From positions 1 through 56,241 of the IMG/VR virus record IMGVR_UViG_3300005764_001667: a stretch of DNA of 56,241 nt. One strand, given 5' to 3'. This document shows, one piece after another, positions 3,641 to 56,192 of this stretch. Under the pieces are notes generated by a model, which was not told the DNA's origin, did not search any database, and was given only the letters and a program-made list of their open reading frames with translations. Source of the DNA: a virus. Lineage: Duplodnaviria > Caudoviricetes. The position numbers and the translations under genes were made by a program. Position 1 is the stretch's first letter; every line of letters begins with the position of its first letter.

Positions 3641-3729
3641 ATTATATATATCAATGGACACAAAAATCTGCACCATTTGCGTTGAGAAGGCAATTGAACC
3701 TGCCGACCTGGCCAAACACTTGTCCTAAA

Positions 3730-19115: not shown

Positions 19116-20120
19116 TCAGAGGGGTGCCCCGCCGGGTGAATCCTCCCCAATTTTTTCGCCGCGCACCCATGTCTTCCCAATTTTTTTGGGCCGGAATTCG
19201 GGCTTCAACATCAGCCTGCCACGATCTAAGTCCTTGCGATCTTTGGGGATAGAGAAATACTGCTCCAGGTCAGGCCAGTCCTGCTCGCGTATGGTCAAAG
19301 GTTCACCACGGAAGAAGCCCACCCAACTGTTCCCGACCTTACCGGAAAAGTTGTCCTGCTTTAGCTGGCCCTCGGCAGTTTTTTGGTAAGGCTGGCTTAG
19401 CTCGAAGCCGATGTACTTACGGCCCAGGTGCTTTGCGGCGAGGGCGGTCGTCCCCGTGCCCATGAAGGGGTCGAGGATGATGTCGCCCTCGTCGCTGCTC
19501 ATCAGGATGAGGCGCTCCATGAGATGCACCGGCAGGATGCAGGGGTGGTGTAGCTTCTCGTGCTGGCCGTGCTTGATGCGGTGGATGTCGGTCCAGCAGT
19601 CGCCGGTCAGGGAGCCGAACAGGGGGATGCGGTCCTTTTTGCCGCCCCAATCTTTTGCAATTCGCTTGCAGCGTATGCAGTATTTATGGGCGTGGCGTAG
19701 CTGATAAAACTTGGGTTTCTCCGTGACGCCGTAATATAAGATGCCGTAGTGCCGGGGTTGAAGGCCCTTGCCCATCGGCCCGGCGGGCGCGTCCCAGGCG
19801 ATCCAGTTTTTGAAGACGGCCTTGGGGTTTAAGTGAGCCGCGTACTCGATAAGATATTTCGGAATATGATGGACGAATATAGAACCGTCGTCTTTGGTCA
19901 CTCGCACCATTTCGCCCAGCCAGAGCTTGGACCACTCGATATATTCTTCGTGTTTCTTGCGGTCGATAATGCCGCCCTCGTACTTCTTGTCGAGGTTAAA
20001 AGGCGGGTCGGCAAAGGAAACCTGGGAACTCTTGGCGGGGATGGCCTTGAACAGATCGAGGCAATCACCGAAGGTGATTTCGTCAACGTATTGTGCCAGG
20101 CTGATTTTATCTTGGAACAT
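19116..20120 (-). CDS. N4-C/N6-A DNA methyltransferase (beta class)
   Basis: DPPF precedes LDPFMGTGTT; HPC..P; TATAAT-N6-ATG at 20120. Confidence 0.92.
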   Translation of the reverse strand: MFQDKISLAQYVDEITFGDCLDLFKAIPAKSSQVSFADPPFNLDKKYEGGIIDRKKHEEYIEWSKLWLGEMVRVTKDDGSIFVHHIPKYLIEYAAHLNPKAVFKNWIAWDAPAGPMGKGLQPRHYGILYYGVTEKPKFYQLRHAHKYCIRCKRIAKDWGGKKDRIPLFGSLTGDCWTDIHRIKHGQHEKLHHPCILPVHLMERLILMSSDEGDIILDPFMGTGTTALAAKHLGRKYIGFELSQPYQKTAEGQLKQDNFSGKVGNSWVGFFRGEPLTIREQDWPDLEQYFSIPKDRKDLDRGRLMLKPEFRPKKIGKTWVRGEKIGEDSPGGAPL

Positions 20121-20184
20121 AGGGGTATTATAAAATGCCTCCGGGACCGGCACCAGCCCAGATTTGCAAATCTATAATTTTGGT

Positions 20185-20730
20185 ATGTACATCGAAGAAG
20201 CACGTCATCAGTATCGCAATGTTCTTTATCCGTTCGTGGTTCAGACCACACCTGCGTTACTTGCCACCGATTTTGATACAAAGGGACTGATCGCCCCAAA
20301 GCATTGGGAGTGCCTGGCGGCGATCTTGCGTGGTGACCGCAAGTCAAGAAGTCGATATGGTATCGACCTCTGCCACGCCGAAGTGAAAACGGCGCTAGAT
20401 ATGAATGGCAAGTTCGATTACCAATGGCACCGAAAGAACTGGCGCAAGACCTTTTGGCAGCAGATGCAGAACGATCACGTTTTCGTCACGTTCCCGGAAG
20501 ATTATTCGTGGATCGTGGTGCGGGTTTTGACCCCGGAATATATGCAGCCGCGATTGTTGGAATGGAGGCCGAGAATTTATCAGGCATATGTCATCCCCGA
20601 AAAGCCGGAGAAACGATGCCGTGCAACTTTGGACCTGGGGTATGTCAAAAAGTACGGCACCGTTATTTTTGAGGACCGTATCGAGGCCCCGGTCGCTTCA
20701 CCGAAAGCGATCCAGTTGTGGGCCTCCTGA
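20185..20730 (+). CDS. hypothetical protein
   Basis: TATAAT-N6-ATG leaderless start. Confidence 0.6.
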   Translation: MYIEEARHQYRNVLYPFVVQTTPALLATDFDTKGLIAPKHWECLAAILRGDRKSRSRYGIDLCHAEVKTALDMNGKFDYQWHRKNWRKTFWQQMQNDHVFVTFPEDYSWIVVRVLTPEYMQPRLLEWRPRIYQAYVIPEKPEKRCRATLDLGYVKKYGTVIFEDRIEAPVASPKAIQLWAS

Positions 20731-24355: not shown

Positions 24356-25183
24356 ATGGGACTGCCACCTTTATTTTCGCAGCGTATGCTGATGTGCTGG
24401 CCCAGGCACTATCAAGTTTGCTATAAGATCAACCCCTGGATGAAGCCCGACGAGCCGGACCAGGCGGTTAAAAGGTCGCTCGCCGTCAAGCAGTGGATCA
24501 ATCTTCATCATACCCTCATTCGCCTTGGCGTCTTTGTGGAATACATCGACGCCACCCCCGCTATACCCGATCACGTCTTTACCGCCAACGCCGGATTGAT
24601 TTATGGCGAAAAGGTGGTATTATCCAATTTCAAATACAAGGAGCGGCAGAAGGAACGCCGTAAATACCATCGCTGGTTCGAGGACCATTGCCTTGAAGTC
24701 AAGACCCTTCCCGCCAAGCTTCACTTCGAGGGGGCTGGTGACGCACTGTTTGTTGGTGATACCTTATACGGTGGTTTTGGTTTTCGCTCTGATTATCTCG
24801 CTCATATTCAGGTCGCTGATACGCTGGGAATCAAGAAGTTCCATCTTCTCAAGCTTGTCGATCCTCGTTTTTATCATCTGGATACCTGTTTTTGTCCTCT
24901 GCGGAGCAATACGGCTCTTGTATTCCCGGACGCCTTCGACCCCGAATCCCTGGCTGTGATGGACTCGCACCTGAACATGGTGCCGGTCCCGCCCCAGGAG
25001 GCCGAAAGATTTGCTTGCAACGCCGTCGTCCTCAACAACGACATCGTGATTCCGAAAGGCTGTCCGTTGACGCGGGAGCGACTGATCGGGGAGAACTTTC
25101 GCGTATATGAAGTCGAGATGGGGGAGTTCATCAAGGCCGGCGGTGCCTGCAAGTGTTTGACCCTGAATTTAGGTGTAATATGA
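24356..25183 (+). CDS. amidinotransferase/dimethylargininase family protein
   Basis: INPWM, PD.VFTANAG, FEGAGD, FYHLDTCF, FIKAGGACKCL. Confidence 0.9.
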   Translation: MGLPPLFSQRMLMCWPRHYQVCYKINPWMKPDEPDQAVKRSLAVKQWINLHHTLIRLGVFVEYIDATPAIPDHVFTANAGLIYGEKVVLSNFKYKERQKERRKYHRWFEDHCLEVKTLPAKLHFEGAGDALFVGDTLYGGFGFRSDYLAHIQVADTLGIKKFHLLKLVDPRFYHLDTCFCPLRSNTALVFPDAFDPESLAVMDSHLNMVPVPPQEAERFACNAVVLNNDIVIPKGCPLTRERLIGENFRVYEVEMGEFIKAGGACKCLTLNLGVI

Positions 25184-33636: not shown

Positions 33637-33717
33637 CATGGAAGTTATTGGGGTTCTCCTCATTATATTGATCGTGTGGTGGTTCTGGCACATGCTCTCC
33701 GATGGTGAGGACGACTG

Positions 33718-33969
33718 ATGCCAAAACTTGGCTTTTGGTGGTGGGTCAGGGCGTATTTCAAAGTCTGTTTCAGCCGTGAAATGTGGCTGAACTGGCTTTT
33801 CGTCATCTTCTACGTTCTGATGCTGGCCACCCACCTGGAACGCGGCTCTTTCGACCCCTGGTTGCTAGTCAAACAAGGGCTTCTTTTGGTTGTCATGGCT
33901 CTGGTGTTCGGGGCGATGGGTGTCATCGGGGCGATGATAAAACTGCGAGATCAAAATGGACCATCGTGA
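33718..33969 (+). CDS. small membrane protein
   Basis: Two hydrophobic segments, TGATG coupling. Confidence 0.55.
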   Translation: MPKLGFWWWVRAYFKVCFSREMWLNWLFVIFYVLMLATHLERGSFDPWLLVKQGLLLVVMALVFGAMGVIGAMIKLRDQNGPS

Positions 33970-35158
33970 AATCGGGCGGCGGTTGGACCTGTTCATGCAG
34001 CACGAGCTTGCGCCGGGCTGCCCAATCTGGCTGCCCAACGGCACCTTGATTTACAACCTGTTGGCGGACAGAATCCGCAAGTTCAACGCCCAGCACGGCT
34101 ACCACGAGGTCCGCACGCCGGTCCTGTGGAACCACGAGCTTTATAAACTGTCCGGGCATTGGGACCACTACCAGGACTTCATGTATGGCGTCCACGGGCG
34201 GGAGGAGGACAAACTCTATAACCTCAAGCCCATGAACTGCCCTGGGCACATGCTGATCTTCAAAAGCAAGCAGTGGTCGTACCAGGACTTGCCCTACCGT
34301 CTCCATGACCAGGGGATATTGCACCGCGATGAAACCTCCGGGGCCGTAGGGGGTCTGACCCGGTGCCGGGCCTTCTGCCAGGACGACGGCCATGTGTTCC
34401 TGCGACCCGACCAGATCGCTCAGGAAGTCGAGGACATGATAAAGATGGTGGAAACCATCTACGTCGAGCGCTTTGCCATGCACGACTTCCGCATGGCTCT
34501 GTCTACCCGCCCCGAAGACTTCATGGGCGATCCCGGCGAGTGGGACCACGCCGAGGCCCAGCTTCGGCTGGCCATCAATCGCCCCGGTGCGAAGTTCACC
34601 ATCGAGGGAGGCGGTGGCGCGTTCTACGGACCCAAAATCGACTTCTTCGTTAAGGACAGCCAGAACAAGGAGTGGCAGACCGCCACCATCCAGCTTGACT
34701 TCCAGTTGCCGCAGCGATTCCAGTTGGAATACACGGACGAGGAGGGCGTGCGTCGGACGCCCGTGGTCATCCACCGGGCCTATTACGGCAGTTTCGAGCG
34801 CTTTATCGCCATTCTGCTGGAACATTACCAGGGCAACCTGCCGTTGTGGTTGTCCCCGGTCCAGGCAGTCTTCTTGCCGATCAGCGAGAAGCAGAACGGC
34901 TACTGCGGCACCCTCAACGCGGAGTTCAAGGCGCGGGGTCTGCGTACCGAGGTCGATACGTCCAACACTCGCATCAACGCCAAGATCGTCCACGCCAGCG
35001 AGCGGATGGTGCCGTTTATGCTGGTGGTGGGTGACCGGGAAGTGCAGAGCAGCCGCGTTAACGTGCGCCACTTCCACGACAAGGCCGAGGAGGGGGAGAA
35101 GCCCTGGCAACGAGTCATGGAGCATTTAAGCAAACTGGACCGGGAGTCCTTCTACTAA
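33956..35158 (+). CDS. thrS: threonyl-tRNA synthetase lacking N1/N2 (editing) domains
   Basis: Starts at DHREIG; SGHW.HY, KPMNCPGH, HR.E.SG..GLTR.R.F.QDD.H, AFYGPKID, TIQLDF, IHRA..GS.ERF, anticodon-binding domain. Confidence 0.96.
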   Translation: MDHREIGRRLDLFMQHELAPGCPIWLPNGTLIYNLLADRIRKFNAQHGYHEVRTPVLWNHELYKLSGHWDHYQDFMYGVHGREEDKLYNLKPMNCPGHMLIFKSKQWSYQDLPYRLHDQGILHRDETSGAVGGLTRCRAFCQDDGHVFLRPDQIAQEVEDMIKMVETIYVERFAMHDFRMALSTRPEDFMGDPGEWDHAEAQLRLAINRPGAKFTIEGGGGAFYGPKIDFFVKDSQNKEWQTATIQLDFQLPQRFQLEYTDEEGVRRTPVVIHRAYYGSFERFIAILLEHYQGNLPLWLSPVQAVFLPISEKQNGYCGTLNAEFKARGLRTEVDTSNTRINAKIVHASERMVPFMLVVGDREVQSSRVNVRHFHDKAEEGEKPWQRVMEHLSKLDRESFY

Positions 35159-39234: not shown

Positions 39235-39591
39235 CTAGGGGTCAGCACCGGGAGATAACGGGGTATCGGGCCGCTTTTGCCCTTCCGCCTTGGTTGCCTC
39301 CTTTTGCCTCCGCAACATGCCATGTTTACCTCCTTTGAGTACGCGACTCGGATAGTTTATATAGCCGTCCATGCCTTCATCTTCCTTTTTCTTCTCGTCG
39401 TATTCATAAAACGACGAGTAGTCGTCGGTGATTACCACCTGCAAGTCGTGGTGGTGAATCAAGTAGTCCTTGTACTGCGAGCGGTCGGCTTCGTTGTAAA
39501 CCCGGAAGAACAGTTCCCCGTTCACGCCGCGTAGCAAGTAGCCCTTGACGTTGTGGGCCGAGGTTTCATTGGCTTGGAAGGTTCGTTCCAT
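39235..39591 (-). CDS. hypothetical protein
   Basis: ORF downstream of valS. Confidence 0.6.
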   Translation of the reverse strand: MERTFQANETSAHNVKGYLLRGVNGELFFRVYNEADRSQYKDYLIHHHDLQVVITDDYSSFYEYDEKKKEDEGMDGYINYPSRVLKGGKHGMLRRQKEATKAEGQKRPDTPLSPGADP

Positions 39592-40957
39592 GTTGCACCT
39601 TGGGTTTGAGTTTGATGAGGGTGCCTGGCATGAACACCCCCATGTATTCGCGCATGTCGTCGTAGATGGCCCGTAATGTGCCGTTCATGGGCTGGCGCTT
39701 GGATTCTTCAATCCGAATGGCGCAGAAACGGTGCCAGAAGTATTCAAAGAACAACTCGCCGGCCTCCGGCCAGTCATAGTCCTCGAAGGCGGCATTGATG
39801 CCCGCTTTGCGGTCCAGCCACTCCTTCCAGACTGCCTCGTTGGTGGTCTGGTCCGCGTGCATTTCCAAGAAACGCTCCGCGTTGCGCCACTTGGTAACAC
39901 ACCGTTTCCCGTATTCCATGCACACAGGGTTGATGCGGGTGTCGGAGCCGATGGTGGACTGTGCGGCCCAATAGCGAACGCCATCGGACGTGTGCTGGTC
40001 GAAGTATTCATTCGGCGGCTTGTAGTTTCCCTCCGTCTTGGAGATTTTCTTCCCTTTGGGGTCCAGGGCGTGACCACTGATGACGATGGTGCGCCAGGGA
40101 ATCTGATCGTTGTGGAGGACGCTTTTAATGATGGTGAATAGCGCCCAGGTGCGGATGATGTCGTGGGCCTGGAACCGAACGTCAAATATCGGACACTTGA
40201 GCGTGTTCTGGTATTTCCCTTCCTCATGCCAGGCTAGTTGCGGTGATAAACTGGACGTGTGCCAGGTGTCGAAGACGATGCCGGGCGGTTCTCCGGGGAT
40301 GGGGATGCCGTAGTTTCGCTCGCGGCTGATCGACCAGTCCTGGTTGCACTGGTCCAGCCAGGCCAGCAGGCGGTCTTTATATTTCTGCGGCTTCCAAACG
40401 ATCTGGTTGATGGCGGCGCGGATGCGTGGCAGGTTGTCGAGGACTTTTATGAACCAGCCCTCGCCCCGCCGGATTTCGACCTTTTCGCCGCTTCGCTCGT
40501 ACCGCCCGTCCTCGGTCAGTTCGTTTTGGGAGACGGAAACCTTGGTGACCGGGCAGAAGAAATAGTCCCGCTCGGCTTTGTACGCCTGGCCCTTGGCCAC
40601 CAAGTCGTGGAACGAGAGTTCGGCCAGGCGGACGGCGAAGGGGCTGAAAGTGCTATAGTGATGCCACGAGTAGGCCATCGCCAGGCGCATGAACAGGATG
40701 TGGTAGGCGAGGGCTTCGCCGTGGGAGAACCCGATGATTTGGTCTTGCTGCATAATGCCCGCAGCGTGGGCCAGTTTCTCCGTTGGGAGGCCGTTGTTGT
40801 CGTAACAGTACGGGTAGACGAGGTATTCGTCTTTTATGTGTCTGTGGTATCGGGCAATGAAGTCCATCTGGGCGTAGCTGAAAACATGGCCCATGTGGAG
40901 GGTGCCGCTAACGGTAGGCGGCGGAACGTCGATGAGGAATTTTCTGTCCTTGTTCAT
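39566..40957 (-). CDS. valS: minimal valyl-tRNA synthetase (463 aa; CP1 editing, CP2 and coiled-coil absent)
   Basis: ID.PPPTVSG.LHMGH, DNNGLPTE, DWSISR, FDTW..SS, QAHDIIRTW, KISKT. Confidence 0.92.
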   Translation of the reverse strand: MNKDRKFLIDVPPPTVSGTLHMGHVFSYAQMDFIARYHRHIKDEYLVYPYCYDNNGLPTEKLAHAAGIMQQDQIIGFSHGEALAYHILFMRLAMAYSWHHYSTFSPFAVRLAELSFHDLVAKGQAYKAERDYFFCPVTKVSVSQNELTEDGRYERSGEKVEIRRGEGWFIKVLDNLPRIRAAINQIVWKPQKYKDRLLAWLDQCNQDWSISRERNYGIPIPGEPPGIVFDTWHTSSLSPQLAWHEEGKYQNTLKCPIFDVRFQAHDIIRTWALFTIIKSVLHNDQIPWRTIVISGHALDPKGKKISKTEGNYKPPNEYFDQHTSDGVRYWAAQSTIGSDTRINPVCMEYGKRCVTKWRNAERFLEMHADQTTNEAVWKEWLDRKAGINAAFEDYDWPEAGELFFEYFWHRFCAIRIEESKRQPMNGTLRAIYDDMREYMGVFMPGTLIKLKPKVQHGTNLPSQ

Positions 40958-41063
40958 GGCGCAGTTGTCGGTTAGGGTGCGTGAAACGGCTGGGGTTGCG
41001 ATCCCACAAGGACTCGCAACCCTGACGCACGCCGACAACAAACCTGACTGCAACAAGGTGCAT
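40908..41063 (-). promoter_or_regulatory. Val-rich leader peptide/attenuator of valS
   Basis: TATAAT(41070-41075)-N6-ATG; MHLVAVRFVVGVR... has 5 Val in the first 12 codons, the last three lying in a long hairpin that ends a few nt before the valS ATG. Confidence 0.65.
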
Positions 41064-41106
41064 GGAGGTATTATACTCCCCCGGCCCAGAAAACGCTACC
41101 GAAAAT

Positions 41107-41202
41107 TAGCCGAGGCGGGACTCGAACCCGCAAGCCCTAACGGGCAGAGGATTTTAAGTTGCCTGGCTTAATCCTCAGCGTATACCTTTCCGCCACTCGG
41201 CC
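41107..41202 (-). tRNA. tRNA-Leu (UAA-like) with 13-nt insertion in anticodon loop
   Basis: Acceptor GGCCGAG/CTCGGCT+A73, D arm, stem GAGGA/TCCTC closing a 20-nt loop, long variable arm, GGTTCGAGTCC; no encoded CCA. Confidence 0.85.
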
Positions 41203-41888
41203 TAAACCTGCCAGTCCGCGTCCAGGCTGCGGTAGATCGGCTTCTTTTTGGGCCTTGGGGCACCGACGCCCGTGTGCTGCTGGATGACCTTCTGCACGGT
41301 GGCTTGGTCCTCCAGTCGGACCATACCACTCAGATCGTGCAGGGAGGCGATCCAGAAATCCCACTCGTGCCGGCTGCCAGCAACGGAAGGCTGGAGGAAC
41401 CGGGAATCGTCGTAGCTGGGGTACATCATGCCGCCGCCGGCCTGTTGCATTTTACGAACCACCAGCAGGTCGCGTCCAGTTTTATACGCCGTCACGTCGC
41501 CCAGCGCGGGGCTGTCGATGTCGCCCGCGACGGCCCGCATAACAACGGTGTGCAACATCTTGCCCATCGAAAAGACCATCGGCCCCTGGTTCTTGGAGAA
41601 AATGCCGCCCCGGTGGATGACGTTGTAAAAGTAGCGCTCTATCGGTTTGACCTCGCGGGCTTCTTGCACCTGATGTGGCCAAAGCGACTGGTAGAGGGCG
41701 CAGTAGTCGCACTGCCCTTGCCACCTGCCGTTCACCAGGATGCGGTGGCAGGTGTGGTTGGTCTGGCAGAGCCGATGCTGGCAGAAGCCGTGGAAAAGGC
41801 CCTTGCCCTTCCCAGGGGGCAGGATACGCAGCGTCACGGGGTCCGTCCCGGTCGGCAACGTGAAGAAGATGTTGCTGAGGTTTCCCAT
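41202..41888 (-). CDS. second gp32-like SSB paralog
   Basis: LRILP, CDYC, KPIERYFYNV, GP..FS.GK, GRDL, YPSYDDSRF; collinear with the gene at 1-647. Confidence 0.8.
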   Translation of the reverse strand: MGNLSNIFFTLPTGTDPVTLRILPPGKGKGLFHGFCQHRLCQTNHTCHRILVNGRWQGQCDYCALYQSLWPHQVQEAREVKPIERYFYNVIHRGGIFSKNQGPMVFSMGKMLHTVVMRAVAGDIDSPALGDVTAYKTGRDLLVVRKMQQAGGGMMYPSYDDSRFLQPSVAGSRHEWDFWIASLHDLSGMVRLEDQATVQKVIQQHTGVGAPRPKKKPIYRSLDADWQV

Positions 41889-42009
41889 ACGGGCCGATCT
41901 TATCCTGTTTTTTTCGCCGTGTAAAGCCTTGAAACTTTCATCCTTGACAGTACAATCAGACTGGAGGAAGTGCGCGACGAAACTAGACGGAAGTTCACCT
42001 ATATACGGC

Positions 42010-42723
42010 ATGGGTGAATTCGCAAACTTCTTCCGGCTACAGGAGATGGCTGCCCGGCGGTCCTTCACGCGGACGATGGGCAAGTACGAGCCGGAAGACA
42101 TCGAGAAGCCGGTAGCTACCCTGACCGCCTGGCGGGCGGAACTGAAGAACCCCGCCGGCCAACTCTACCCCGAAGAAGTGCGGCGGCGACGGAACGACGC
42201 TGCCAACGAGAAATTAAAACGCAATATTGAAAAACGCGGACTGTCGCATTACCCGGTGGTCGGTGCCGGCCAGGAGATGAAGAAGGGCGTGCTGACGGTG
42301 AACAAGGAAAACAGCTTTATAATCCAGCCGATTGGCACGATGTCGAACGACGAATTCATGCAGCATGTCCGCGAACTGTTATGGAACCCGACCGAGGAGG
42401 AAGGGCGCGGCCCGTTCCCGCATACGCAGTGGGGTGCCAGCATCAAGCTCCCCGGCAGGAAGCAGTCGTTCCTGAGTTACCATCCTGGTGACGTTCCGAC
42501 CGGCCCTGAAAGTTACACCGAGAAGGATGACATTGGTGCGAGGGCAGAACCCAGACGGGGGCAGGAGCGATATTACACTCAGATGAAATATGGGCCACGA
42601 GCCGAGCCGGCGATGATGGACCCATTGGACCAGCCCAGCGACGTAGGCAACCCGCCGCCGGGCAAAAGGGGTGAGGGGTTGCCTGGTCAACGTTTCACGA
42701 TCAAAGACAGAGAAGTGCCATGA
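42010..42723 (+). CDS. hypothetical (DUF3293-like) protein
   Basis: LTAWR...N..AN..L...GL...V.G...E.SF; upstream TATATA. Confidence 0.55.
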   Translation: MGEFANFFRLQEMAARRSFTRTMGKYEPEDIEKPVATLTAWRAELKNPAGQLYPEEVRRRRNDAANEKLKRNIEKRGLSHYPVVGAGQEMKKGVLTVNKENSFIIQPIGTMSNDEFMQHVRELLWNPTEEEGRGPFPHTQWGASIKLPGRKQSFLSYHPGDVPTGPESYTEKDDIGARAEPRRGQERYYTQMKYGPRAEPAMMDPLDQPSDVGNPPPGKRGEGLPGQRFTIKDREVP

Positions 42724-54086: not shown

Positions 54087-55370
54087 TTATACCGGGTGGT
54101 CCAAAGGTTGTAAAGCCAAACCAGGGGCGAAGCAGTGGAGCATCGGGAGCAGCGCCGCCACCGTCGCGGGGGAAGGCTTTTTCTCCCGATTCTTGTTGTA
54201 AAACCCCATCAGGGTGGAGACGACCTTGTTGACCTTCCAGCTTTGTAAGTAGTGGTGGACCTGGGCGTGGAGATCGGTCAGGTCGATGTCGTTTTCACCG
54301 GGCTGGGACAGCCAGCGCCGCAGCCGGCCCAGGAACCGGCGAATACCCGTGATGGCTTTGTCGTCCCAATCACCCCCTTCCTGATACGGTCCCAGGAACA
54401 TTAGATAAAGGCGCAGTTCGTCGGGGTCGTAATCGTCGGGGTTGACGGCGTTGCCTTTGCTTTTTCCCATCTTGGCACCGCCCGCCGTTATCATGCCCTG
54501 GTGGACGACGTGTTTGAAGGGTTCCTCCTGCGTGACGATGCCCAAGTCGTAGAGGAACATATTGATAAAGCGGGCGTAGATCAGGTGCATACACGCATGT
54601 TCCGGCCCGCCAACGTACAGGTCCACCGGCTGATAGTTGTGGGCGTGCAGGAAAACCTCCGGGTCATTTTCCAGGTAGCGGAGGAAATAAAAGCTGGAAT
54701 CCACGAACGTGTCCAGCGTGTCCGTGTCGCCCTCGATGGGGATGGGGCAACCCCACTTGCGTTGGCGGGACACGCACCAGTCACGCAGGCCCTCCAGCCA
54801 GACCCTCTGCTGCTTGCGGGTGCCTTCGGGGTAGTCGATCCGGTCCAGGTTGTCGATGAGCCGGTCCTTGTAGGCGGTGATTTTGAAATACCACTGGTTG
54901 AGTTGGCGGACCTCCGGCTTGGCGCTACAACGATTGCAGTAGCCACCGCTCACCTGCTCGTTCGCCAGCACGGTGTCGCAGGAGGGGCAGTAGTTGACCG
55001 GGCCGAAGGCTTTGTACGCCAGCCCCTTGTTCTTCAGCAGGGTGAAGAGCCACTGCGTCCATTTGTAGTAGGAAGGGTCACAAGTCACCAGCTTTTCTTC
55101 GTACTGCGTGTTCATGCGGGCCATCTGCGCCCGGAACCGTTCGATGTTGCCCCAGGTGACGGTCTTGGGGTCGCCGCCGATGGAGCGGGCGTAGTTCTCC
55201 GCAGGCAGGCCGAAGGCGTCGTAGCCGAAGGGCTGGAAGACTTCGGTGCCGAGGTAACGCAGCCACCGGCAGTAGGAGTCCACGATTGCGTAGTTGTAGC
55301 AGTGCCCCAGGTGCAGGCCCGCGCCGGACGGGTAGGGAAACATCACGCAGCAATAGAATGGTTTACTCAT
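54087..55370 (-). CDS. leuS: minimal leucyl-tRNA synthetase (427 aa; CP1, CP2, Leu-specific and C-terminal domains absent)
   Basis: MFPYPSGAGLHLGH, DAFGLPAEN, YYKWTQW.F, TVLANEQV, LRDW..SRQR.WG.PIP, DTFVDSS, YVGG.EHA..HL.YARF, KMGKSKGN. Confidence 0.95.
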   Translation of the reverse strand: MSKPFYCCVMFPYPSGAGLHLGHCYNYAIVDSYCRWLRYLGTEVFQPFGYDAFGLPAENYARSIGGDPKTVTWGNIERFRAQMARMNTQYEEKLVTCDPSYYKWTQWLFTLLKNKGLAYKAFGPVNYCPSCDTVLANEQVSGGYCNRCSAKPEVRQLNQWYFKITAYKDRLIDNLDRIDYPEGTRKQQRVWLEGLRDWCVSRQRKWGCPIPIEGDTDTLDTFVDSSFYFLRYLENDPEVFLHAHNYQPVDLYVGGPEHACMHLIYARFINMFLYDLGIVTQEEPFKHVVHQGMITAGGAKMGKSKGNAVNPDDYDPDELRLYLMFLGPYQEGGDWDDKAITGIRRFLGRLRRWLSQPGENDIDLTDLHAQVHHYLQSWKVNKVVSTLMGFYNKNREKKPSPATVAALLPMLHCFAPGLALQPLDHPV

Positions 55371-55518: not shown

Positions 55519-56192
55519 TTTTTCGCTCGTACAAACTTCTGGGTGTCTTTATTGTACGAGGCGAAAAGCCTGAATTCCTTGACGCAGTTAATGTCCCACA
55601 GTACGCCGCTCGCGCAGTCCCAGCCGTAATACCATTGGGACAGCAGCCGCTTCTGGTAGAGGTAGGGGGCGATCTCCACGCCCGCATATTTCTCAGCCAC
55701 CGCCGGCCAGTCGATATAATCCATCCGCAGGCCACCGTCCCGGCGGCGCAGGGGTTTCAGGATCGCCTTCAGGCGTTCGTCCCGTTCCCAGGGCGGGCCG
55801 CAGGAGAACTCGTCCTCGAAGTCTTCAAACTCCTTAATGGTAGCAATGACACGCAGGGCGCTGGTGTCCACAACCAGTTCGTAGAAGTAGCGTTCACTGC
55901 CTCGGAAACGCTCACATAGGCACCAGTCAGCCCAGGAGCCGTCGATCCCCCACCAAAAGCCGGTTGGGACTGGTTCCGGCTGTTCCAGCGAGTACGTCGC
56001 CGGCTTATAGTCCAATTGGTCCGGCGGGTATTCAATCTCCAGCTTCTTGATCTTCTTCTTCGACAAGTGCAGGCGGCGGTCCCCTTTGAGGCGGTCGATA
56101 AATTTCCGCATCGCCGTGTTGACCGGGCTGGCTTCGTGGCGGCGATGGTGCGCCCGCGTCTTCTTGATGCGTTCCTTGAGAGACTTGTCCAT
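55515..56192 (-). CDS. hypothetical protein
   Basis: IDW..V...YAG.EI...WYYGWDCASG motif; upstream TAAATA. Confidence 0.7.
   Translation of the reverse strand: MDKSLKERIKKTRAHHRRHEASPVNTAMRKFIDRLKGDRRLHLSKKKIKKLEIEYPPDQLDYKPATYSLEQPEPVPTGFWWGIDGSWADWCLCERFRGSERYFYELVVDTSALRVIATIKEFEDFEDEFSCGPPWERDERLKAILKPLRRRDGGLRMDYIDWPAVAEKYAGVEIAPYLYQKRLLSQWYYGWDCASGVLWDINCVKEFRLFASYNKDTQKFVRAKK

Follow-up and report, generated by a model that had tools for sequence, protein, structure and literature searches.

A conserved hairpin and a predicted leaderless reading frame over the start of a phage valyl-tRNA synthetase gene

The 56,241-nt stretch analysed here (the window; IMG/VR record IMGVR_UViG_3300005764_001667) is a 56-kb fragment of a virus record with a GC content of 57% and a CheckV completeness of 11%; its source is a huge phage from soil metagenomes, and its closest relative is a viral contig of 343 kb. 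On its minus strand lies valS, a gene for a shortened valyl-tRNA synthetase (ValRS), and over the start of this gene runs a short upstream open reading frame (uORF), the leader ORF, whose start codon is the predicted 5′ end of the transcript and whose first codons form one strand of a long hairpin with the valS initiation region. We conclude that the conserved hairpin and the predicted leaderless uORF together probably bring about a ribosome-dependent unmasking of valS. That this ribosome-operated switch is in addition tuned by stalling at valine codons, in the manner of translational attenuation, is the best single mechanism that we can offer, though one to which we do not quite commit ourselves. 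With a shade more reserve still, we put forward that the phage gauges the charged tRNA-Val of its host through a leaderless, Val-coded uORF and makes its proofreading-free ValRS only on shortage.

The leader frame and the hairpin over the valS start

Read along the minus strand, TATAAT (41075-41070) is followed by ACCTCC and by an ATG (41063-41061) that opens MHLVAVRFVVGVRQG..., the complete frame down to 40908 translating as MHLVAVRFVVGVRQGCESLWDRNPSRFTHPNRQLRHEQGQKIPHRRSAAYR before its stop. Valine stands at codons 4, 6, 9, 10 and 12 and at none of the other 39. The frame is offset by +1 from that of valS, whose ATG at 40957 lies 106 nt downstream of the leader ATG; the leader ORF reads across it out of frame and stops 47 nt inside the gene. 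As the six nucleotides before the leader ATG (ACCTCC) hold no Shine-Dalgarno (SD) sequence, its translation would have to be leaderless. A sigma-70 scan for -35 and -10 elements called no promoter at the leader, a -35 box being absent there. It is credible, judging by the TATAAT-N6 spacing, that the transcript begins at the A of the ATG at 41063, both because the same arrangement starts real genes in this phage and because the spacing of -10 box, N6 and ATG is identical in all four leader-bearing sequences described below while the flanks differ. Indeed, at least 3 of the 26 TATAAT hexamers in the window (9 on the plus and 17 on the minus strand) are followed after six nucleotides by an ATG opening an ORF of at least 30 codons, where 26/64, or ~0.4, would be expected, and this arrangement opens the gene for a 334-aa N6_N4 DNA methylase (Pfam E-value 1e-44) at 20120 as well as its divergent neighbour at 20185. 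Motifs resembling GTATAATACCT, with two mismatches at most, occur nine times in the window, all on the minus strand (shuffle mean, 3.9). In all four folds, nt 1-5 of the RNA are unpaired, leaving the 5′-terminal AUG free.

Folding of the predicted transcript yielded a long imperfect hairpin (-48.7 kcal/mol; z-score, -2.91; 1 of 200 dinucleotide shuffles as good), and the same long hairpin was obtained for the relatives, with z-scores of -3.28, -3.61 and -3.81, none of 200 shuffles matching them. The minimum-free-energy fold contains the pairings GUUGUCGG/CCGACAAC (its 3′ arm stopping 6 nt short of the valS AUG), GUGCGU/ACGCAC and GGGUUGCGA/UCGCAACCC. Since the valS AUG is itself paired in helix H2 (Table 1), the start codon would be buried in the folded RNA. 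A GGAG-like motif is absent before the valS ATG in all four sequences, leaving valS without an SD; such a motif, by a loose test with uncurated starts, precedes 24 of the 44 long minus-strand ORFs of the window, many of them with a textbook GGAGG.

How a ribosome on the leader might affect this fold was modelled through pairing probabilities, with an assumed footprint of -12 to +14 around the P site. In this model, which considers equilibrium thermodynamics only and to that extent weakens the case, the valS initiation region (-13 to +5) had an unpaired probability of 0.25-0.46 in the free RNA, of 0.50-0.81 with the A site on leader codons 6-14, and again of 0.25-0.46 with the A site on codons 18-24. 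Per sequence, the footprint raised this value from 0.25 to 0.50-0.60 in the window, from 0.28 to 0.63-0.81 in the relative L005 and from 0.36 to 0.66-0.72 in the relative L007. The opening coincides with the Val cluster almost by construction, because the cluster lies in the 5′ strand. These results bear out much of an original prediction for this DNA, which had named the TATAAT, the 6-nt spacing and the ATG at 41063, the out-of-frame passage across the valS start, the confinement of all five Val codons to the first 12 and the arm pairings, and had proposed refolding with a ribosome footprint: sequence, translation and minimum-free-energy fold all agree with it, and the footprint does raise unpairing of the valS region. 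Helices H1 and H2, the missing SD of valS and the tRNA-like gene upstream of the TATAAT go beyond that prediction.

The mechanism that we propose would run as follows. Transcription would start at the A of the leader ATG, and the naked RNA would form one long hairpin in which, as folding and covariation indicate, leader codons 2-17 make up the 5′ strand, the 3′ strand comprising the SD-less valS initiation region, the valS AUG and valS codons 2-4. A 70S ribosome initiating on the 5′-terminal AUG and translating the first ~14 codons would strip the 5′ strand away, leaving the valS start free for a second ribosome; with the first ribosome gone, the hairpin could close again. In the strand predicted to pair with the valS upstream region, three of four codons are Val (GTT GTC NGN GTG), and a shortage of Val-tRNA(Val) might hold the ribosome at these codons, prolong the open state and yield more ValRS. 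This would be attenuation of the type represented by the mycobacterial leaderless Cys small ORF (sORF) and by ermC, without a terminator. A terminator scan of the minus strand from 41063 to 40957 detected no terminator-like hairpin with a U-run, and the folds show one nested hairpin and no alternative-hairpin (antiterminator/terminator) layout; this result favours control at translation over control at transcription.

Relatives were gathered by protein-guided scans of viral and metagenome contigs bearing the shortened enzyme (mini-ValRS), and 32 loci were examined (below, W denotes the window sequence, L-numbers the relative loci, and G000 and G001 relative genomes). Left out were L006, L085 and L089 as the same as L001; L012, L017 and L023, whose upstream sequence equals that of L011, L016 and L022, respectively; L018 and L032, with the start missing or at the locus edge; and L038-L084, with an identity of at most 32%. 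Three distinct loci, L005, L001 and L007 (ValRS identity to W of 91%, 79% and 80%), share the succession of SSB-like gene, tRNA-like gene, TATAAT, leader and valS. All four leader-bearing sequences keep the TATAAT-N6-ATG spacing unchanged and the ORF open, and the uORF stop falls 47-50 nt past the valS AUG. From ATG to ATG there are 106 or 115 nt; both distances leave a remainder of 1 on division by 3, so that indels totalling 9 nt have kept the frame offset between leader and valS. GTT GTC NGN GTG, encoding V9 V10 x V12, is invariant in 4/4, L001 and L007 reading VVRVGV. Contigs from four soil DNA runs added one L005-like variant and one variant in which leader codon 5, in an unpaired stretch, is changed from GCA to TTG; no change is listed at 41028-41039 in these runs, some of which leave parts of the stretch uncovered. 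The sequencing runs listed for this sequence include none of RNA.

Covariation also points to a maintained structure. In an alignment fitted to a covariance model built from W and L005, which leans towards the structure and is to be discounted accordingly, 90.7% of the 140 cells pair, a share that drops to 39-46% once partners are displaced by 1-3 columns; both sides have changed in 7 of 35 pairs (0-1 after displacement), and the covariation score of 0.295 compares with 0.01-0.07. None of 500 column shuffles came up to the observed pairing or score. The two sub-clades differ at helix H3 (GUCGG/CCGAC versus GUCCG/CGGAC), the fourth pair of the apical stem is U-A, U-G or C-G, and the 7-bp helix H1 is CCUUGUU/AACAAGG in W and L005 versus GUUCUUG/CAAGAAC in L001 and L007, a difference that tracks an N-K-D versus D-K-N change at the ValRS N-terminus. 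Because the covariance-model alignment imposes the W register on H1 of L001 and L007, this helix is under-counted there. MAFFT combined with RNAalifold, an alignment that is not structure-aware, returned part of the structure only.

Table 1. Coordinates of the leader, its helices and the adjoining genes in the window
Feature	Positions	Strand	Description
tRNA-Leu(UAA)-like gene	41107..41202	-	13-nt anticodon-loop insert; directly after the SSB-like gene (41202-42101); ends 32 nt before TATAAT
-10 box TATAAT	41070..41075	-	inside conserved GTATAATACCT; no -35 match; identical in L005, L001 and L007
Leader ORF	40908..41063	-	51 codons plus stop; ATG is the predicted first transcribed base, 6 nt past the -10 box; passes the valS ATG in the -1/+2 frame
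Codons 9-12, GTT GTC GGC GTG (V V G V)	41028..41039	-	invariant Val cluster and 5′ strand of H3/H4
Long imperfect hairpin	40948..41058	-	RNA nt 6-116, ~38 pairs
H1	41058-41053 with 40953-40948	-	leader nt 6-11 (CCUUGU) with valS +4..+9 (ACAAGG)
H2	41047-41042 with 40960-40954	-	leader nt 17-22 with valS -3..+3; holds the valS AUG
H3	41039-41032 with 40971-40964	-	codons 9-11 with valS -14..-7
H3 3′ strand CCGACAAC	40964..40971	-	-14..-7 of valS, the place of an SD; none present
H4	41030-41025 with 40982-40977	-	
H5	41022-41014 with 41001-40993	-	
Hairpin tip			UCC/GGG
valS	39566..40957	-	463-aa ValRS without CP1 editing domain or C-terminal part; HIGH (HMGH) and KMSKS-type (KISKT) motifs

Competing explanations and the case for valine

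A number of observations weigh against the proposed switch. Such a leader is missing from 29 of the 32 examined mini-valS loci, including L009 (77% identity), L008 (68%) and L086 (65%); in those 29, valS abuts or overlaps the preceding ORF, or comes after a terminator in AT-rich genomes, and no Val-rich uORF crosses the valS start. The valS ATG overlaps or abuts the upstream stop in L009, L013, L015, L022 and L033 (stop at +1) and in L008 (+11), and given such overlaps in several relatives, the family may need only a passing ribosome. As the four leader-bearing sequences fall into two sub-clades, few independent events underlie the conservation.

In line with this, the uORF might act by constitutive coupling, its only task being to load ribosomes and melt the hairpin for an SD-less valS; the need for it would have arisen with the insertion of a tRNA gene and a promoter upstream, and the Val codons would be a by-product of a G/U-rich strand pairing with an A/C-rich region. 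We consider this unlikely, albeit a serious competitor. That valS lacks an SD in every clade member speaks for it, as do the preceding ORFs whose stops overlap or abut the valS ATG in the distant relatives just named, the Val count of W, which does not exceed that of shuffled sequences, and the complementarity of GUU and GUC to AAC and GAC of the 3′ strand. In L016/L017 (~1290-1500; 51% identical), moreover, a tRNA gene precedes an SD-led uORF (MSLSATTMETDVRTHATA...), which passes over the valS ATG in another frame without being rich in Val; a uORF reading across an SD-less valS start may be a recurrent solution in the mini-valS family. Against mere coupling, a uORF stop 47-50 nt past the valS AUG is far for termination-reinitiation, the in-frame placement of GT dinucleotides in L001 and L007 (see below) goes with an enriched residue that is the cognate one, and a conserved hairpin would be an odd way to load ribosomes. 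That the phage could start valS directly at a TATAAT-N6-ATG, yet keeps a covarying hairpin of 106-115 nt, is our reason for favouring regulation over ribosome loading.

Whether valine is the signal of the ribosome-operated switch is a narrower matter, on which the evidence is divided. The leaders of L001 and L007 hold 9 and 8 Val in 37 codons (P = 0.005 and 0.009 versus dinucleotide shuffles), with 9/12 and 8/11 of their GT dinucleotides in frame, whereas Val makes up 6.2% of residues in 11 long ORFs; the clustered, invariant residue is the cognate one and is sited on the strand that masks the valS start. To the other side belong the 5 Val in 34 codons of W, set against a shuffle mean of 3.65 (P = 0.28), and, at P = 0.12, the 6 Val of L005. 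The relatives have Val at codon 3 in place of codon 4 and Ala in place of Val 6, so neither is conserved, and V4/V3 is the reverse complement of a valS Asn codon, AAC. The invariant Val codons are themselves stem bases, GUU and GUC being the complements of AAC and GAC in the partner strands, and the four sequences show no synonymous or compensated non-Val change; as the codons of Val 9, 10 and 12 double as the H3/H4 strand without synonymous variation, selection on the amino acid is inseparable from selection on pairing. Nor do the genes for LeuRS, ThrRS and MetRS (the last in the relative genome G001) have an analogous cognate-codon leader (0/3), each of them overlapping or abutting an upstream ORF. 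The conservation of Val codons and pairing that the original prediction had looked for thus holds in L005, L001 and L007 for V9, V10 and V12, for the pairing and for compensatory changes, and fails for V4 and V6. Likewise, of its idea that stalling on Val codons licenses valS translation, the translational opening fits the footprint model and the lack of a terminator, while Val as the signal is left unsupported by codons that are stem bases and by the Val count of W.

Two further explanations dispense with a translational switch altogether. The RNA might act on its own, with the ORF incidental: as a processing or stability site (for example of RNase III type, after the tRNA), as an operator for a protein, or within a Rho-dependent attenuator. 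Intergenic hairpins of this long, imperfect kind are classic processing sites in phages; the covariation backs the structure as such, C outnumbers G by 21 to 7 in the 3′ strand (RNA nt 63-106), and the peptide is without visible purifying selection, most differences within a sub-clade being non-synonymous. We nevertheless hold this to be improbable, as the ATG lies exactly N6 from the -10 box and the frame is open in 4/4, indels come in multiples of 3, and the rut-like stretch of 44 nt is short. An Rfam scan of the whole window at gathering thresholds and a scan of 40800-41400 at E ≤ 10 detected no T-box and no family in the leader, and the apical loops UUGU, GUGUG, GUGGA and GUGGU are without a NAC Val anticodon; an anticodon mimic of the thrS type is therefore not seen. 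The remaining proposal, that the leader ORF encodes a functional small protein of 51-55 aa merely overlapping valS, we find hardly credible. The ORF is conserved and open, and G-C-x-S-[LV]-x-[DE]-R-x-P is common to both sub-clades; the RNA coding for this motif, however, is the covarying apical hairpin, the valS frame dictates the C-terminal third of the peptide, there is no Pfam match, and even the closest pairs often differ in their amino acids.

The synthetase, its neighbours and other predicted leaderless starts

The 463-aa product of valS is a class Ia synthetase for which the top NCBIfam models are ValRS (NF009687, 332 bits), with 133 bits for IleRS, 77 for LeuRS and 73 for MetRS models; all of these matches remain under the full-length cut-offs, which for NF009687 is 738. 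A profile of eight family members aligns to residues 35-232, 378-414 and 450-686 of Thermus thermophilus ValRS (1gax, 862 aa), with HMGH and KISKT opposite HIGH and KMSKS, and residues ~233-377 of 1gax have no counterpart in the phage enzyme, from which we conclude that it lacks both the CP1 editing domain and the C-terminal part. All of eight homologues (54-91% identity) start at the same Met just before FLIDVPPPT, which fixes the valS start at 40957. An N-terminal extension of valS, or a +1 frameshift into it, was considered and ruled out on account of this shared Met; no shift site is evident.

At E ≤ 1e-20, the mini-ValRS family counts 1454 proteins of 254-811 aa, whose contigs reach 770 kb, and one member carries the label of a Nanoarchaeota metagenome-assembled genome protein. 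That the phage mini-ValRS is functional is plausible from its motifs aligned to 1gax and from the size of this family. A pattern scan of prokaryote genome contigs (one genome each, 185,579 species) returned 54 stretches, none of them from a relative, and no match to the leader pattern; as no relative surfaced there, the family looks virus-restricted. Among viral contigs, a pattern scan for further leader instances matched only an already-known contig, and the best hit among phage GenBank records, LR745206.1 (42% identity), is without the leader.

The class II tRNA-like gene upstream of the leader is called as tRNA-Leu(UAA) by ARAGORN only when introns are allowed, and a weak tRNA-Sec match at this gene (24.3 bits, E-value 0.019) was the sole signal near the leader in the Rfam scan. 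In L007 its insert is 10 nt long; in L001 it has 8 nt, and an alternative placement there gives 'tRNA-Stop(tta)'. The insert lengthens the anticodon stem through pairing of UUAAG with CUUAA; inserts this short are unlike the usual group I introns of bacterial tRNAs. Since the acceptor, anticodon and variable stems covary between the sub-clades, we take the gene to specify a maintained RNA.

The synthetases of this phage are all stripped down. Beside the 463-aa ValRS (39566-40957, minus strand), the window encodes a 427-aa mini-LeuRS (54087-55370, minus strand; TIGR00396, 394 bits) and a 400-aa mini-ThrRS (33956-35158, plus strand), which matches positions 172-562 only of the 565 in TIGR00418 and so would miss the N-terminal editing part. 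In front of thrS lie two small hydrophobic ORFs (33638-33969, plus strand) of 26 aa (33638-33718) and 83 aa (33718-33969), joined by ATGA, the second overlapping the thrS start by 14 nt; a Thr-rich leader is not among them. The relative genome G001 carries a 544-aa MetRS-like gene (L095, 142-1776), named by eye, and in G000 and G001, searches with PF00152, PF00749 and PF00579 brought up no additional synthetase. That one phage should hold an entire set of synthetases without proofreading may merit a look of its own.

Leaderless-type starts recur elsewhere in the window. At 20118-20187, two of them diverge 65 nt apart, TATAAT-ACCCCT-ATG on the minus side leading into the 334-aa N6_N4 DNA methylase and TATAAT-TTTGGT-ATG on the plus side into a 181-aa product without a family. 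TAAAAT-N6-ATG at 24356 (plus strand) opens a 275-aa DDAH-like gene, and TAGAAT-N5-ATG at 56192 (minus strand) is a similar start. The extended motif TATAATAC(C/G)(T/C), probably a phage promoter -10 element plus discriminator, occurs five times, always on the minus strand (3646, 15513, 20132, 23842 and 41075); downstream of the sites at 3646 and 23842, no gene start is obvious over long stretches.

Comparison with known leaders and implications

The E. coli leaders of pheST (pheM), ilvBN (ivbL) and ilvGMEDA (ilvL) are transcription attenuators in which an SD-led leader peptide is combined with alternative hairpins and a U-tract terminator. The phage element resembles them in its short, cognate-rich leader peptide and in the logic by which scarce charged tRNA would yield more enzyme, and differs from them in its single nested hairpin, in having no terminator-like site and in its predicted leaderless start. 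Leaderless leader peptides have been predicted upstream of aminoacyl-tRNA synthetase genes in Deinococcus deserti (14 cases, e.g. cysS; PMC4007540). The cysS mRNA shares with the phage leader a 5′-terminal AUG on a synthetase mRNA and a short peptide with cognate residues, whereas predicted transcription attenuation, an SD before cysS and a cellular setting are particular to D. deserti.

A closer likeness is found in the leaderless sORF Ms5788A of Mycobacterium smegmatis, for which mutations showed that translation of the sORF and pairing are both needed (Canestrari et al., 10.1101/834739). The two elements have in common a leaderless sORF at the transcript 5′ end (predicted in our case), a leader that is nearly as a whole one stable duplex, regulatory codons that pair just before the downstream start, and a translational mechanism in which a stalled ribosome is proposed to free that start. 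In Ms5788A, eight consecutive Cys codons stand at the 3′ end of the sORF, which finishes 97 nt short of the gene; the masked region contains an SD, the targets belong to cysteine metabolism, the genome is cellular and the mechanism is experimentally proven. The phage element has 3 Val in 4 codons (4 in 6 in L001 and L007), no SD, an sORF that runs across the gene start to end 47-50 nt inside it, a synthetase as its target and a phage genome, and is predicted from sequence. It thus shows both a cognate codon cluster, if a weaker one than eight Cys, and the pairing of these codons with the downstream initiation region. In ermC and cat, too, as summarised in 10.1101/834739, arrest of a ribosome within a leader ORF leads to refolding of a hairpin that masks the downstream initiation site, the signal being an antibiotic plus nascent peptide and not tRNA charging.

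Huge phages carry many tRNAs and synthetases (PMC7162821), and the accessible text of that survey mentions synthetases and neither leaderless mRNAs nor introns. A limited full-text literature search retrieved no paper on leader-peptide control of a phage synthetase. The statement in the original prediction that such attenuation was not known from a phage agrees with this search, although the mechanism itself is known in mycobacteria (10.1101/834739).

A conserved cis-regulatory leader on a phage synthetase gene would mean that the gene is under regulated expression, and the leader arrangement hints at a host that translates leaderless mRNAs well. Being compact (~125 nt), the element suits tests of whether a phage senses the aminoacylation status of its host. 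Should the valine reading fail, the locus would still be a clean natural case of a uORF-opened hairpin driving an SD-less gene. Leaderless-sORF translational attenuation, so far mycobacterial, would be extended by the element to viruses and to a synthetase target. If Val sensing is true, no amino-acid-sensing attenuator would have been described in a virus before this one, and there would be direct evidence that the mini-synthetases of huge phages are demand-regulated working enzymes and not passengers.

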